A stretch of DNA of 64,000 nucleotides from assembly GCA_030603365.1 (NCBI GenBank), contig JAUVXV010000014.1:32001-96000 (forward strand). Direction: 5' to 3'. The stretch is from Candidatus Heimdallarchaeota archaeon (GTDB lineage Archaea > Asgardarchaeota > Heimdallarchaeia > Heimdallarchaeales > Heimdallarchaeaceae). This document shows, in pieces, positions 45,194 through 49,310 of this stretch. Numbering within the stretch: position 1 is the stretch's first letter; each line of letters starts with the position of its first letter. Under the pieces are notes generated by a model that saw nothing but the letters and a program-made list of their open reading frames with translations, was not told where the DNA came from and searched no databases. The position numbers were made by a program, and so were the translations under genes.

Positions 45194-45233
45194 GTTCTTA
45201 AGAACTTCCTTTCAAGAACTGTAAATAAAGAAG

Positions 45234-46517
45234 TTAGAGGAGCTTTTCTCCCTCTTCTAAACTTAACATTGTAAAACCGCTAATCATTTTTGGATAGAAA
45301 TCTGTAGCTTTTTGTGGCATTCTTTCTCCATGTTTTGCAACTTTTAAGACTTGGTCAGCACTAGTCGGATTAAGAAAGAAAGCAACTTGGTATGTACCAT
45401 TATCAACTTCTTCTACAGCTTCGTTCCACCATCTTTCATAGAAGATATCATCATCAATATGCAAGTCACCTAATCCCATAATTCCATGGAAAATCATATC
45501 TCTAAGAATAACAACATCAAGACTTTTGAAATCGTCACTAACCTCACCAACATATCGATTAATAGAGGAAGGATCTTTCATAATAAGAGAAACAGCTCTA
45601 CCATCTTGATAAAGAACAAAAACATGCTTATCCCTGTTTTCTTCCAAGAATTTAGGAATGTCAGATTTGAGGATTTCATTCAAATCAAAGAATATCTTAA
45701 GTTCATTCATTTTCTCTTCTGAAACCTTAACTTTAGCTAAACAACGATGAGTAGCTAAAATGACTAAACCTTCATCTTCAACAGGAACCAAATAAGTCAT
45801 ACGAAATTCTGTAGCATTATCTTCCTTTAAGGGGTCTGCTGTTTCTCGACGCATATTTCTATAGGTAACTGCTGTTTCATAACGGTGGTGCCCATCAGCT
45901 ATTACTAGTTGCTGATCTTTGAATACTTCTTGAACAATCTTGATATGAACGGAATCAGATAACTTCCAGATGCGGTTAATAACACCTAAATCATCTTTAG
46001 CATTAATCAAAGGAGGTTGCTTGGATATTTCATCAAATAGATTTATTGTTTTCTTATCTGGATCTGAATAGAGAATAAATCCTGTTTCAAGTGTATGTCT
46101 CGTAGTTTTCAACATATTCAATCTATCAATTTTTGGACCTTTGTGGGTCTTCTCATGTGGTAAAACTATTTTTTCTTCGAATGGATGTAAACGCAAAGCA
46201 CCAATGAAACCTTTTCGGACATATTTTTTTCCAAATAATTCAAACTCTTGATAGTAGATGTAGATCCCAGGAACATCATCTTTCACAAGAATTTCTTCTA
46301 ACAGCCATCTCTCTAAACGCTGTCTAGCTATTTCATAACGATTTTCTTCACTTGGTAAAGTTAATCTGCAATAATTGTAATCTGATTGATTATAATATTG
46401 TATTTGCATTTCTGCATCGATTTTATCATAGGGTTGAACAATTAATTTTTCAATATCCCCAGCTTTTTCTGTATATCTAATAGCCTTGAATGGTCTGATA
46501 TCTACCATTGTAATCAA
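45234..46517 (-). CDS. DUF1015 family protein
   Basis: IRPFKA.RY, PYD, PHEKT, IADGHHRYETA, MPQKATDFYPK. Confidence 0.92.
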   Translation of the reverse strand: MITMVDIRPFKAIRYTEKAGDIEKLIVQPYDKIDAEMQIQYYNQSDYNYCRLTLPSEENRYEIARQRLERWLLEEILVKDDVPGIYIYYQEFELFGKKYVRKGFIGALRLHPFEEKIVLPHEKTHKGPKIDRLNMLKTTRHTLETGFILYSDPDKKTINLFDEISKQPPLINAKDDLGVINRIWKLSDSVHIKIVQEVFKDQQLVIADGHHRYETAVTYRNMRRETADPLKEDNATEFRMTYLVPVEDEGLVILATHRCLAKVKVSEEKMNELKIFFDLNEILKSDIPKFLEENRDKHVFVLYQDGRAVSLIMKDPSSINRYVGEVSDDFKSLDVVILRDMIFHGIMGLGDLHIDDDIFYERWWNEAVEEVDNGTYQVAFFLNPTSADQVLKVAKHGERMPQKATDFYPKMISGFTMLSLEEGEKLL

Positions 46518-46728
46518 ACTAGCTCATCAAGAACTCTATTTTAATTTTTTCATTAGAATATAAATTATTTCGAGTTTTTTCGAGTTTTGTCTGATGAGAA
46601 GAACTTAATTTAATTTAAAAATAATGATATACCATTTCAATAGGATATATCGTCTTTAAGATATATCTTTAACAATGTTTATTAAAACCCATATCTGATG
46701 TTTACAAAAGAAGAAGGTGACATAAAAC

Positions 46729-48180
46729 ATGCCAAAAACAAAGCCTAAACACTGTGAAAAGGTAATGCATCGTCTCTACATAAGAAAAGGTACTGAGAAA
46801 AGAAAGTGGATAGCAGTTGGCTATTATTGTGATGAATGTTCAATTATGATGAAGGAATATGACTTAACAAAATTAGGGGGAATACAAGAAATAACAATTG
46901 ATGCTTCTAAATTAGTAGAAAAGGTTACGAATCCAAAGAAAGTTGTCCTAGATCCAGGTTTTTCATTAACCAAAGTTGGTTTTACAGGAGAAAAAGAACC
47001 TAGATATATTTTTGATTCTGCAGTTTATTTCTCAGATACAGGAGAATCTTTCATTCAATTTGCAGATAAAGTTGAAACAAAAACTGAAGTTAAGATGAAA
47101 AAACCAATTTTTCGTAAAACAGAGCAAGGTGAAACCTTAGATAAAGATATCTTTAAGCTATTTCTCAAACATATTTTCGACAAACTTAAAGTGAAGTCTT
47201 CAGAAACAGCTTTTTGGGTTATTGAGAAATATCAGAAAAGAAATTTTGCAGACTTCTTAAAAGGCAGATTAGATGTAATCAATAATAGTACTTTACCAGA
47301 AGAAGCTAAAGACGTTCTCAGAAAGGAAGGAATGGTTGAGTATGTCAATGGATTTGAATCCTCATTCTCTATTCGACGAGCTATTGCTGAAGTATTCTTT
47401 AATGGTTTTAACATTCCTAAAGTTTATTTCTCACTCGGAGAACTCCTCTCACTCTATGCTGATGATCAAGTAACGGGTGTTGTTATAGGGATAGGTTCAA
47501 ACTCGACCCGAATCACTCCCATCTATGAAGGATATATTATATCTCATGGATTAAGCATACGCGAGAAAGGGGGATTGGATGTTGTCAAACAGCTGGAAAA
47601 ACACATCCAAAAAGAGGGCATAGATATACCCAAATCATATCATGCAAACTATCAAATTCTAAAAAACACTCGATTAGCATCTGAAGAATTGTGCTTTGTT
47701 TCACAGAATGTCAAAGATGAGAATAAGAAATGGAAACAATCTGATAAACTTATGAGATCTATCAATATTATCAATGATAAACACATTAGACTAAATGAAA
47801 TCAGATATAAGTCAACTGAAATACTATTTGAAGAAGAACCTTTGAGTATTCTAAATAATCCTGGGGATTTAGCTGATGCAGTCATTGAATCTATTCAAAA
47901 ATGTGACAAAGGATTGGTTAAAAGTCTATATGCTAATATTCTGCTAGTTGGAGGAGGTACAATGTACGAAGGATTTAAAGAAAGATTCACTCAGTCTTTC
48001 AAATCGAAAGTTTCAGATCAACTAAATTTCAACATCACTGCAAAATCTGATAGACTTATATCAGCATGGATAGGGGGGTCAATACTCTCTGGAATGAAAA
48101 TTTTCGAGGAACGTAATTTCTGGGTATCTAAAAATGAATATGATGAGAAGGGTTCATCAGCTGTAGATCAATGTATCTGA
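46729..48180 (+). CDS. Divergent actin-related protein with N-terminal Zn-ribbon-like extension
   Basis: VVLDPG...KVGF.GE..PR.IF.S; LSLYA...TG; PIYEGY; SIQKCD...LYANILLVGGGTM; SAWIGGSIL; WVSKNEYDEKG. Confidence 0.92.
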   Translation: MPKTKPKHCEKVMHRLYIRKGTEKRKWIAVGYYCDECSIMMKEYDLTKLGGIQEITIDASKLVEKVTNPKKVVLDPGFSLTKVGFTGEKEPRYIFDSAVYFSDTGESFIQFADKVETKTEVKMKKPIFRKTEQGETLDKDIFKLFLKHIFDKLKVKSSETAFWVIEKYQKRNFADFLKGRLDVINNSTLPEEAKDVLRKEGMVEYVNGFESSFSIRRAIAEVFFNGFNIPKVYFSLGELLSLYADDQVTGVVIGIGSNSTRITPIYEGYIISHGLSIREKGGLDVVKQLEKHIQKEGIDIPKSYHANYQILKNTRLASEELCFVSQNVKDENKKWKQSDKLMRSINIINDKHIRLNEIRYKSTEILFEEEPLSILNNPGDLADAVIESIQKCDKGLVKSLYANILLVGGGTMYEGFKERFTQSFKSKVSDQLNFNITAKSDRLISAWIGGSILSGMKIFEERNFWVSKNEYDEKGSSAVDQCI

Positions 48181-48188
48181 TGATGAGA

Positions 48189-49259
48189 TTATTTTAAATC
48201 CCATATCTCTTTTGTTTTTCTTTCTAAATCTTCTAAACCTTCAAATGAAGGCTTCTTCTTTCCTTCCTCAATTTCATGAACAGTATCCAGAAGATATTTG
48301 TTTAGAGGAGTAGCTATACCTAATTTTTCTCCTTCTTGAACCAAATAACCATTAAGATAATCAATTTCTGATTTTCTTCCCCATTCAATTGACTGAAGAC
48401 TTGATGATTTTAGATTCTTATATTTCCTGCCAATAATTTTGATTATAGTCTGCTTAAAGAAATATCTAAATGAAAAACCGTGAAGCTCTTTTTTCTTAAT
48501 TACTAAGGAATAAAAACTCAGATTGTTAAGTTTCTGTATCTCCAGATTTTTAGCATTAGCTACTTGTATTCCCTCTGTAATTATGGTTAAGAAAGCAATT
48601 CGAGTAGTCCTTCTTTTAAGCATCTCCCCCAATGTCATACCACTAATAACTCCAAAAGAAGCAATAGATAAGTTAATCAAAAGTTTGGAGAATTTGTCGT
48701 TTAAAATATTGTTTGACCATTTTGTTGGGACAGTAAAGGACAATTTCTCAATAATATTGTCATCAATCTTTTGTTTTTCTCCAGTCATTCGCCCATAAAC
48801 CATTTCACCTAATGAGGTTTTATTAGATTCAGCAGGACCTGTCTTCGATGCTCCAAAACTAACAACACAGCCAACAAGATTCTTTGCATTCAACCTTTCA
48901 CTTAGTTTCTCTTCCATCATCCCATTTGTCATTGTAACAAGAGTGTAATCATTACTTAGTTTTGGTTTAATTCTCTCTATTGCATCTTCTAAATGGTTAA
49001 GTTTTGTTACCATGAAAACTAAATCTAAATCATCAGGTAAATCTTCAATTTGTAAAACAGGTGTAAGATTTTCTTTTACTAGATATTCTCCACTAATCCC
49101 TGTTACTTTCAAACCACGGGAGTTTACAAGATCCAGTACTTCTTGATGTTTACATACTACATATAATGGAAAATCATTCTTTGCTAAATCTGCAGCTATT
49201 ACTGTGCCTATTGCTCCCAATCCTACTAAAGCCGTTTTCATTGAAAACCAAATCATCAA
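48189..49259 (-). CDS. panE: 2-dehydropantoate 2-reductase family
   Basis: GLGAIG, TK, NG, KLLIN, SSLQS, EIDYLNG, TPLN. Confidence 0.82.
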   Translation of the reverse strand: MMIWFSMKTALVGLGAIGTVIAADLAKNDFPLYVVCKHQEVLDLVNSRGLKVTGISGEYLVKENLTPVLQIEDLPDDLDLVFMVTKLNHLEDAIERIKPKLSNDYTLVTMTNGMMEEKLSERLNAKNLVGCVVSFGASKTGPAESNKTSLGEMVYGRMTGEKQKIDDNIIEKLSFTVPTKWSNNILNDKFSKLLINLSIASFGVISGMTLGEMLKRRTTRIAFLTIITEGIQVANAKNLEIQKLNNLSFYSLVIKKKELHGFSFRYFFKQTIIKIIGRKYKNLKSSSLQSIEWGRKSEIDYLNGYLVQEGEKLGIATPLNKYLLDTVHEIEEGKKKPSFEGLEDLERKTKEIWDLK

Positions 49260-49310
49260 GTAGATATTAAAACTTTCCTTGACAAATAAAAAGAAAATAG
49301 AAAAAGAACT

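Follow-up and report, generated by a model that had tools for sequence, protein, structure and literature searches.

What is an actin-fold protein doing with a zinc-ribbon-like head and, directly ahead of its gene, an array of palindromic boxes? The question is raised by a locus in a 64,000-nucleotide (nt) stretch of Candidatus Heimdallarchaeota archaeon DNA (assembly GCA_030603365.1, contig JAUVXV010000014.1, positions 32,001 to 96,000), referred to here as the window. A single long open reading frame (ORF) on its forward strand, at 46729-48180, encodes a protein of 483 amino acids (P0001), which we call ZnR-actin. We give a probability of roughly 60% to the reading that ZnR-actin is a self-regulating, non-filament, lineage-restricted actin-related protein (ARP) made of two working parts. 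The head would most likely recognise the palindromic box ATGRTATAYCAT, present three times at fixed spacing upstream of the gene's own TATA box, and the protein would control its own synthesis, by either repression or activation. The actin body, keeping its adenosine pocket and barbed-face cleft, would bind nucleotide and a partner without hydrolysing ATP or polymerising. Gene and promoter together form a dispensable cassette of deeply diverged alleles, exchanged between close genomes. All structures described below are predictions, and the genomes compared are metagenome bins, 63-99% complete.

The box array begins with box 1 (ATGATATACCAT, 46624-46635; core GATATACC at 46626-46633), which was present in 16 of 16 aligned orthologous promoters. 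Box 2 (GATATATC, 46644-46651), a perfect 8-bp palindrome, follows 18 nt after box 1, and box 3 (again GATATATC, 46660-46667) another 16 nt later. On the forward strand, beginning 18 nt downstream of the first base of box 3, lies a TATA-like element (TTTATTAAA, 46678-46686), a candidate TATA box by comparison with the archaeal promoter consensus; its own consensus, TTTAATAA, kept the same distance to box 3 across 16 loci. The array can be summarised as GRTATAYC x3 with 18/16 spacing, the first box reading ATGATATACCAT. This arrangement was seen in the window and in 15 of 19 further orthologous loci, 16 of 20 in all, with the 18-nt spacing invariant in the 16, while the intergenic DNA around the boxes was unconserved.

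Single boxes are common in the 3.65-Mb genome from which the window comes (274 copies), and from this density about 0.06 pairs would be expected by chance. The genome's sole two pairs at 16-18 nt sit at this locus, as does its sole triple, even when one mismatch per box was allowed, and no boxes were found at its lokiactin genes. An array that is unique in the genome and placed in the gene's own promoter suggests a protein that would control its own synthesis.

Assignment of the array to the divergent DUF1015 gene was considered and rejected. The array relocates with the actin gene in L014 and L017; it also lies inside a segment swapped between genomes, and genomes that lack the actin gene but retain DUF1015 lack the array too. 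A direct repeat, TTTCGAGTTTT x2 at 46568-46590 between the DUF1015 promoter and the box array, was unconserved in orthologues and was dropped. Separately, the DUF1015 promoter and 5' leader (minus strand, 46520-46565; CTCTATTTTAATTTT ... TTAGAATAT) were strongly conserved across the genus. A second conserved box pair, GATATATC-N8-GGTATATC (GATATATCCTGGTTCCGGTATATC), occurred at a different locus in three congeners (G014:C63:28331, G021:C153:5988 and G030:C170:6032) and had no match within 4 mismatches in the window's own genome. A relaxed box search also returned an 18-nt tandem repeat, (GATATTTCAGTAGATCAC)n, at G000:C15:460298-460380, which probably encodes a D-H-D-I-S repeat protein, as in L087.

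Among 83 genomes of the class, the head was found in 21: 17 of 24 in one genus, the window's own genome, both genomes of a second genus, and one of a sister family. Two closed genomes of the same family lacked it. Of the 21 carriers, 20 had an exact box pair ahead of the gene, at a distance of 60-110 nt. By comparison, 52 genomes of other genera held two stray pairs in total, and a reversed-pattern control gave 0-1. In L014 and L017, where the gene stands in another neighbourhood, the box array had moved with it. A divergent ZnR-actin (P0195) had four boxes at 33-nt spacing, and between alleles that are 47-66% identical in DNA the boxes persisted and the head-coding part peaked at 80%.

The head was also found outside the actin family. 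A search of longer proteins with the head profile returned 47 proteins, all of them actin-family members except P0196 and P0198 (ZnR-X; L105:2521-3989 and L110:76-1550), in which the head is fused to an unrelated, non-actin domain of about 390 amino acids. This domain had no Pfam match; atlas features provide a lead that suggests a BtrH_N/peptidase C39-like fold. In both cases, from two different metagenomes, four copies or close variants of ATGGTATACCAT lay within 150 nt 5' of the start and stood out against diverged background sequence. ATGGTATACCAT, a near-palindrome, is the 12-bp form of the box and is shared by the ZnR-X and divergent ZnR-actin loci. Homologues of the ZnR-X domain that have no head, in two Heimdallarchaeial genomes, had no boxes. 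Because boxes accompany the head fusions and are missing upstream of head-less homologues, they can be said to track the head through two architectures and several lineages. This pattern is the strongest evidence here that the head may be the box-binding element and that the genes may be self-regulated. Head and box pair also look like a portable autoregulatory module of archaea that has not been described before. In both ZnR-X contigs, the next gene encodes a GyrI-like/Cass2 protein.

The original prediction described a basic, zinc-ribbon-like N-terminal extension of 70 amino acids, and alignment with the genome's own lokiactins set its length at 68. Residues 1-42 (46729-46854, forward strand; H8, C9 ... 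C34-x2-C37) make up the zinc-ribbon-like head, with a mean pairwise identity of 0.68, and contain 11 K/R against 4 D/E. Residues 43-68 (46855-46932, forward strand) form a variable helical linker with an identity of 0.32 and a low predicted local distance difference test score (pLDDT). Across 27 heads, H8, C9, K11, M13, Y17-I18-R19, G21-T22, R25-K26-W27, G31-Y32, C34 and C37 were invariant. The AlphaFold2 model of the head shows two knuckles, a three-stranded sheet and a long helix; the predicted strands (14-20, 26-33 and 40-42; pLDDT 86-90) form an antiparallel sheet between the knuckles. The candidate zinc ligands are a canonical C34-x2-C37 pair and, in the first knuckle, the adjacent H8 and C9 alone, all four invariant, from which we infer that zinc binding is plausible. 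ESM-Atlas shape matches (TM 0.59-0.65 over 57-64 residues) were to the zinc-ribbon/coiled-coil region of large serine recombinases, a likeness to be taken as a lead from predicted models. No stand-alone head was found among proteins of 36-116 amino acids, the search for which had been proposed with the prediction, the window's genome had no paralogue of the head, and an atlas feature search with the head gave no hit.

Several observations weigh against a self-regulating protein with a box-binding head. The head has just three cysteines and one histidine, and the histidine is adjacent to a cysteine. Its Pfam zinc-finger hits were all sub-threshold, and no solved structure matched it significantly (Foldseek E at least 0.47; VIA Z at most 3.7). 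The case for DNA binding by the head would be built on box-head co-inheritance, and a separate transcription factor could be the binder of the boxes. Box geometry varies as well: the boxes lie upstream of the TATA element in this genus, overlap the start region in L014 and L017, and in ZnR-X come after a TATA-like run but before the start. With geometry differing between lineages, the regulation could be of either sign. Finally, a protein with its own promoter as its sole DNA target must have another job.

One alternative turns these points into an explanation, with the boxes bound by a separate factor encoded elsewhere and the head binding an RNA, protein or membrane target; ZnR-actin would then be no more than a non-canonical ARP under regulation. 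The sub-threshold Pfam hits of the head include dsRNA-binding and U1-type fingers, and its top weak Foldseek row is the N-domain of MqsA, a protein binder. Such a factor, however, would have a single target per genome and, in other organisms, would need to accompany the head when it is fused to an unrelated protein, and neither neighbourhood has a linked regulator gene. We regard this alternative as unlikely and favour a head that would bind the boxes itself.

The presence of the head in the protein depends on where translation starts. A start downstream of the Cys motif would have undercut the predicted fusion, and it was not borne out. A Shine-Dalgarno-like GGTGA (46716-46720, forward strand) lies 8 nt 5' of the ATG at 46729, and no such site precedes the internal Met13. 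Residues ahead of Met13 were conserved in all orthologues. In the two closest relatives, L004 and L008, the start reads ATT behind a Shine-Dalgarno-like GGCGA (L004:2249-2303; L008:2653-2707), and despite this the residues upstream of Met13 (K-S-K-P-K-H-C-G) were conserved, suggesting a likely AUU near-cognate start. The Met13 starts given by the gene caller for P0002 and P0004 are probably wrong, omitting H8 and C9. Within allele types, dN/dS across the gene was 0.14-0.20, which supports a real gene under purifying selection. In three metatranscriptome runs from the same study, no contig was placed on 45200-49300.

An ordinary, polymerising actin isoform with an untranslated or irrelevant extension would agree with the strong actin similarity of the C-terminal half and with the Met13 calls in two relatives. 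It conflicts with the position of the ribosome-binding site and with the conservation ahead of Met13 even where the start is ATT. In addition, few parts of the protein are as well conserved as the head, changes affect the catalytic residues, the D-loop and the 108-115 loop, and two canonical lokiactins are already encoded in the genome. We consider this explanation very improbable.

Membership of the actin family is clear. Residues 69-483 (46933-48177, forward strand) form the actin/ARP fold by Pfam and predicted-structure comparison: Pfam Actin (PF00022) matched residues 70-481 with 206.7 bits (5.9e-61; cut-off 27 bits). The C-terminus reads ...VDQCI, in agreement with the ...DQCI of the prediction. 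In a genome-wide Pfam Actin search, the two canonical lokiactin genes (L001 and L002) scored 450 and 432 bits, and ZnR-actin, at 203 bits, was the third and most divergent actin-family gene. The best hit in a PDB sequence search was the Heimdallarchaeial actin 9wc4 (1e-45), with good alignment limited to residues 217-480. The structure prediction called for by the original proposal, made with AlphaFold2 from an alignment of 28 homologues, gave a four-subdomain actin fold at pLDDT 84. Foldseek compared the model with actins at TM 0.82-0.88, and VIA gave Z 37.7 to actin 4pl7_A (root-mean-square deviation 2.6, 341 residues aligned). VIA Z-scores were 34.7 to Arp3, about 32 to Arp4, 24-27 to Arp8, 28 to crenactin, 24 to MreB and 18-20 to ParM. 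Because the scores are highest to actin and ARPs and low to MreB and ParM, the predicted fold is of the eukaryote-type actin/ARP kind and neither ParM- nor MreB-type.

The residues used for conventional hydrolysis are missing from this body. Manual alignment had proposed S14>F, Q137>G, D154>G and H161>R, and a MAFFT alignment with the genome's own lokiactins, plus 27 family members, agreed on all four (F78, G237, G254, R261), so that S14, Q137, D154 and H161 are absent at every position; it added G15>S79, D157>S257 and G158>N258. In the phosphate-1 loop (D75-P-G-F-S-L-T-K82; 46951-46974, forward strand), S14 and G15 are changed and D11, G13 and K18 kept. G237-E238 (47437-47442, forward strand) places a glycine at catalytic Q137, followed by a glutamate that is invariant across the family. 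The phosphate-2 loop (G254-I-G-S-N-S-T-R261; 47488-47511, forward strand) carries the D154, D157, G158 and H161 changes and keeps G156; R261 is invariant across the family. Positions S14, Q137 and D154 vary within the family, the last being N, G or S, which argues that classical catalysis is not under selection. E214 is also retained, as is the adenosine-binding loop G408-G409-G410-T-M-Y413 (47950-47967, forward strand). With the adenosine pocket, D11, K18 and G156 in place, nucleotide binding may persist.

The surfaces used for filament formation are altered too. In F-actin, the D-loop is the main longitudinal contact and the 108-115 loop a cross-strand contact. The shortened D-loop of the prediction was recovered as a remnant at residues 102-106 (47032-47046, forward strand) with a 6-residue gap relative to lokiactin. 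The insert of about 41 amino acids in the 108-115 loop, placed at 47227-47373, proved to be 41 residues long (residues 173-213) at 47245-47367 on the forward strand. This insert is family-specific, conserved (G179, L189, K194 and L197 invariant) and confidently folded in the AlphaFold2 model (pLDDT 78-93). From the cut D-loop and the insert we infer that the body would be unable to make actin's longitudinal and cross-strand contacts. The hydrophobic barbed-face residues Y243, T249, G268, L453, F459 and W465 are kept, together with the C-terminus. Mean pairwise identity was highest in the C-terminal subdomain-1 segment (0.71) and the head, and lowest in the linker, subdomain 2 (0.35) and parts of subdomain 4; the pointed-face subdomains 2 and 4 are variable.

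Taken from these residues, the actin body probably still binds nucleotide and a partner through the barbed-face docking cleft, and probably neither hydrolyses ATP nor polymerises like actin. The predicted departure from a conventional filament ATPase therefore fits the catalytic loops, D-loop and insert, while the retained adenosine pocket, D11, K18 and G156 stand on the other side; "catalytically degenerate" is a description drawn from sequence. The suggestion of a nucleic-acid-associated protein gained indirect but strong support, in that the head always occurs with a palindromic box array in its own promoter, including in the unrelated fusion.

We then compared ZnR-actin with the genes around it. 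The neighbourhood comprises an LLM oxidoreductase, a small ORF, DUF1015 (-), ZnR-actin (+), PanE (-), SerA (-) and a class-V aminotransferase (-), in an order kept in most carriers. Since the carriers are close relatives, this synteny has no functional meaning. ZnR-actin identity was decoupled from that of the flanks: between L004 and L013 the flank proteins were 94-97% identical and the ZnR-actins 49%, and L005 and L010 showed a similar pattern. Over the segment that runs from the DUF1015 promoter to the stop codon of the actin gene, DNA identity was 47-66%, down from 89-97%. Synonymous divergence (dS) between allele types was 2.35 in ZnR-actin against 0.26-0.29 in the flanks, and within an allele type it was similar to that of neighbour genes. 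A fast-evolving gene as the main cause of the low identities was rejected, as synonymous divergence was also about 8-fold above the flanks. High dS between types, together with purifying selection within them, indicates old, diverged alleles exchanged via flank recombination. There are at least six allele types, swapped by recombination in the flanks, each under purifying selection.

The gene is dispensable. In three genomes (G013, G029 and G036), PanE lies directly beside DUF1015, with neither the gene nor the boxes. In G030 (L086:2150-2420), three boxes and then the last ~14 codons, with a CGA>TGA nonsense change, remain between PanE and DUF1015; this locus is a deletion remnant of ZnR-actin.

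Presence/absence and allele replacement hint at a conflict- or recognition-type role. Under such an explanation ZnR-actin would be a conflict or defence accessory module, a self-limited effector or decoy whose diversity is kept by frequency-dependent selection, with the head as autorepressor. Many toxin-antitoxin and defence operons are autorepressed. The explanation would account for the presence/absence polymorphism within one genus, for deep allele types swapped between near-identical flanks, and for the occurrence of the head on an unrelated C39/BtrH-like domain. It found no other support: there was no PADLOC match, no neighbouring defence gene and no virus link, replacement-type variation is not specific to defence, and we know of no actin-fold defence effector. 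We judge it improbable.

Dispensability also bears on a DNA-to-cytoskeleton tether or partition-like device, in which the head would hold the array and the barbed-face cleft would dock on a lokiactin filament end or another partner. A repeat array that lies upstream of an actin-fold gene and is its sole DNA target mirrors the parC-parM layout, and conserved barbed-face residues beside variable pointed-face subdomains 2 and 4 would suit docking. A tether is hard to reconcile with a gene that is absent from G013, G029 and G036 and reduced to a remnant in G030. No plasmid or viral copies were found, the 124-kb contig has no Orc1/Cdc6 gene (three Cdc6/Orc1 genes lie on other contigs), and the protein is structurally far from ParM. 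Moreover, a peptidase-like protein uses this head and box set too, and there a tether would make little sense. We see little likelihood in this device.

To place the family among its relatives, as the original prediction had proposed, we built a 45-row LG+G4 quick tree. Constrained trees scored higher than this tree, and coarse conclusions alone are drawn from it; its backbone was unresolved and its eukaryote-like representatives are unnamed. The ZnR family formed a tight clade (support 100) outside the Heimdall lokiactin clade (99). A sister relation of ZnR-actin and lokiactin was not rejected (p-AU, approximately unbiased test, 0.54). ZnR-actin grouped with three other long branches (Shimodaira-Hasegawa-like approximate likelihood ratio test, SH-aLRT, 86), a grouping that may reflect long-branch attraction. 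Among 1.84 billion proteins, four representatives at 50% identity were found; the next hit beyond them scored 183 bits, down from 395. Only about three genus-level groups contain the family.

Lokiactin (the Heimdallarchaeial actins L001 and L002, and 9wc4, 'HC1 actin') resembles ZnR-actin in fold and Pfam family, in its ...RCI C-terminal ending and in its barbed-face residues. The two are 29-31% identical and differ in that ZnR-actin adds the 68-residue head and the 41-residue insert, has lost the D-loop, and is changed at S14, G15, Q137, D154, D157 and H161. Another relative, ARPx (MGNLTVVLDIGQFSTK ... GIPPNLL; L023-L083), is a highly conserved ARP of 371-373 amino acids found across many Asgard lineages. 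It carries S14>Q, G15>F, Q137>D, D154>E and H161>R. Its phosphate loops share the derived states D-[IL]-G, x-I-G and T-R-I (H161>R) with ZnR-actin. Of the trees tried, the one in which ARPx and ZnR-actin were forced together had the best likelihood, 16 log-likelihood units above the free quick tree, a non-significant difference (p-AU 0.79). ARPx differs in that it lacks the head and the insert, has a D-loop region of full length and ends in another C-terminus. In the window's class a search for ARPx orthologues found none, its best hits there being lokiactins at 42-47% identity. In another family of the class (G057, L103:1289-3891), we observed a tandem pair of divergent actin-family genes, one encoding a 456-residue protein with a different N-terminal extension of about 70 residues that contains C-P-K-C. 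Five 'asgardactin' clades have been described, without the head feature (Da Cunha et al. 2022, PMC8850707), and several uncharacterised Asgard ARPs have been noted (Rodrigues-Oliveira et al. 2022, PMC9834061). In the literature searched, no published description of the head-actin fusion was found.

Work on Asgard actin relatives treats them as forerunners of nuclear ARPs and of the cytoskeleton of eukaryotes. A eukaryote-type actin fold joined to an apparent sequence-specific DNA-binding head with a 12-bp target makes the question of actin on DNA in archaea testable. Because the family is confined to a few genera and dispensable, it says little about the eukaryotic ancestor. Cassette-like allele replacement is unusual for an intracellular gene of cytoskeletal type and calls for explanation. 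A bolder proposal, which we hold to be rather unlikely, is that head and array form a portable, sequence-specific DNA-anchoring module that places a eukaryote-type actin fold on chromosomal DNA. If so, archaea would have evolved, in ZnR-actin, their own independent counterpart to nuclear ARPs or to a DNA-to-filament tether in the style of ParR/parC; the conserved barbed face would couple DNA to lokiactin or to regulators, and the alleles would reflect type-specific partner recognition.

Comparison with known systems places ZnR-actin beside several designs. Nuclear ARPs such as Arp4 and Arp8 of INO80/SWR1/BAF combine an actin fold with extensions or inserts, have slow or absent ATPase activity, and act as chromatin- or DNA-associated scaffolds and not as filaments. 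ZnR-actin is similar in its extended and inserted actin fold (predicted-model Z 32 to Arp4 and 24-27 to Arp8). It differs in its restriction to about three genera and its dispensability, and in that it would contact DNA sequence-specifically, by means of the zinc-ribbon-like head and at its own promoter. Nuclear ARPs assemble on the HSA helix of Snf2-type remodellers; for ZnR-actin no HSA-helix partner was identified, no search aimed at one having been made. The suggested likeness to nuclear ARPs stays an analogy, the 45-row tree showing no eukaryotic ARP orthology.

In parMRC, the type II partition locus of plasmid R1, ParR holds the parC repeat array upstream of parM; the array is the sole target of the DNA-binding activity and doubles as the promoter-control site. 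The ZnR-actin locus likewise places a centromere-like repeat array at 46624-46667, found nowhere else in the genome, ahead of an actin-fold gene. Here, however, the adaptor is fused to a body that is eukaryote-like (ParM Z 18-20) and without polymerisation features, the locus is chromosomal and dispensable, no ParR-like gene lies in the conserved neighbourhood, and plasmids and viral contigs held no ZnR-actin copy.

For the head itself, the zinc-ribbon/coiled-coil region of large serine recombinases (PF13408; 4kis) has a zinc ribbon of three strands and, after it, a long helix, and binds DNA in recombinases. VIA and Foldseek rows to it were weak (Z at most 3.7), and the first knuckle of the head is HC instead of CxxC. 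For the whole protein, trigger enzymes and ROK regulators (PutA, BirA, Mlc/NagC) carry a DNA-binding domain at the N-terminus, fused to a domain with a functional or sensor role, and control their own or related genes, and the ROK sensor domain is itself an actin-like ASKHA fold. Although the DNA-binding fold and the ASKHA branch are different, ZnR-actin would be analogous to these regulators in design.

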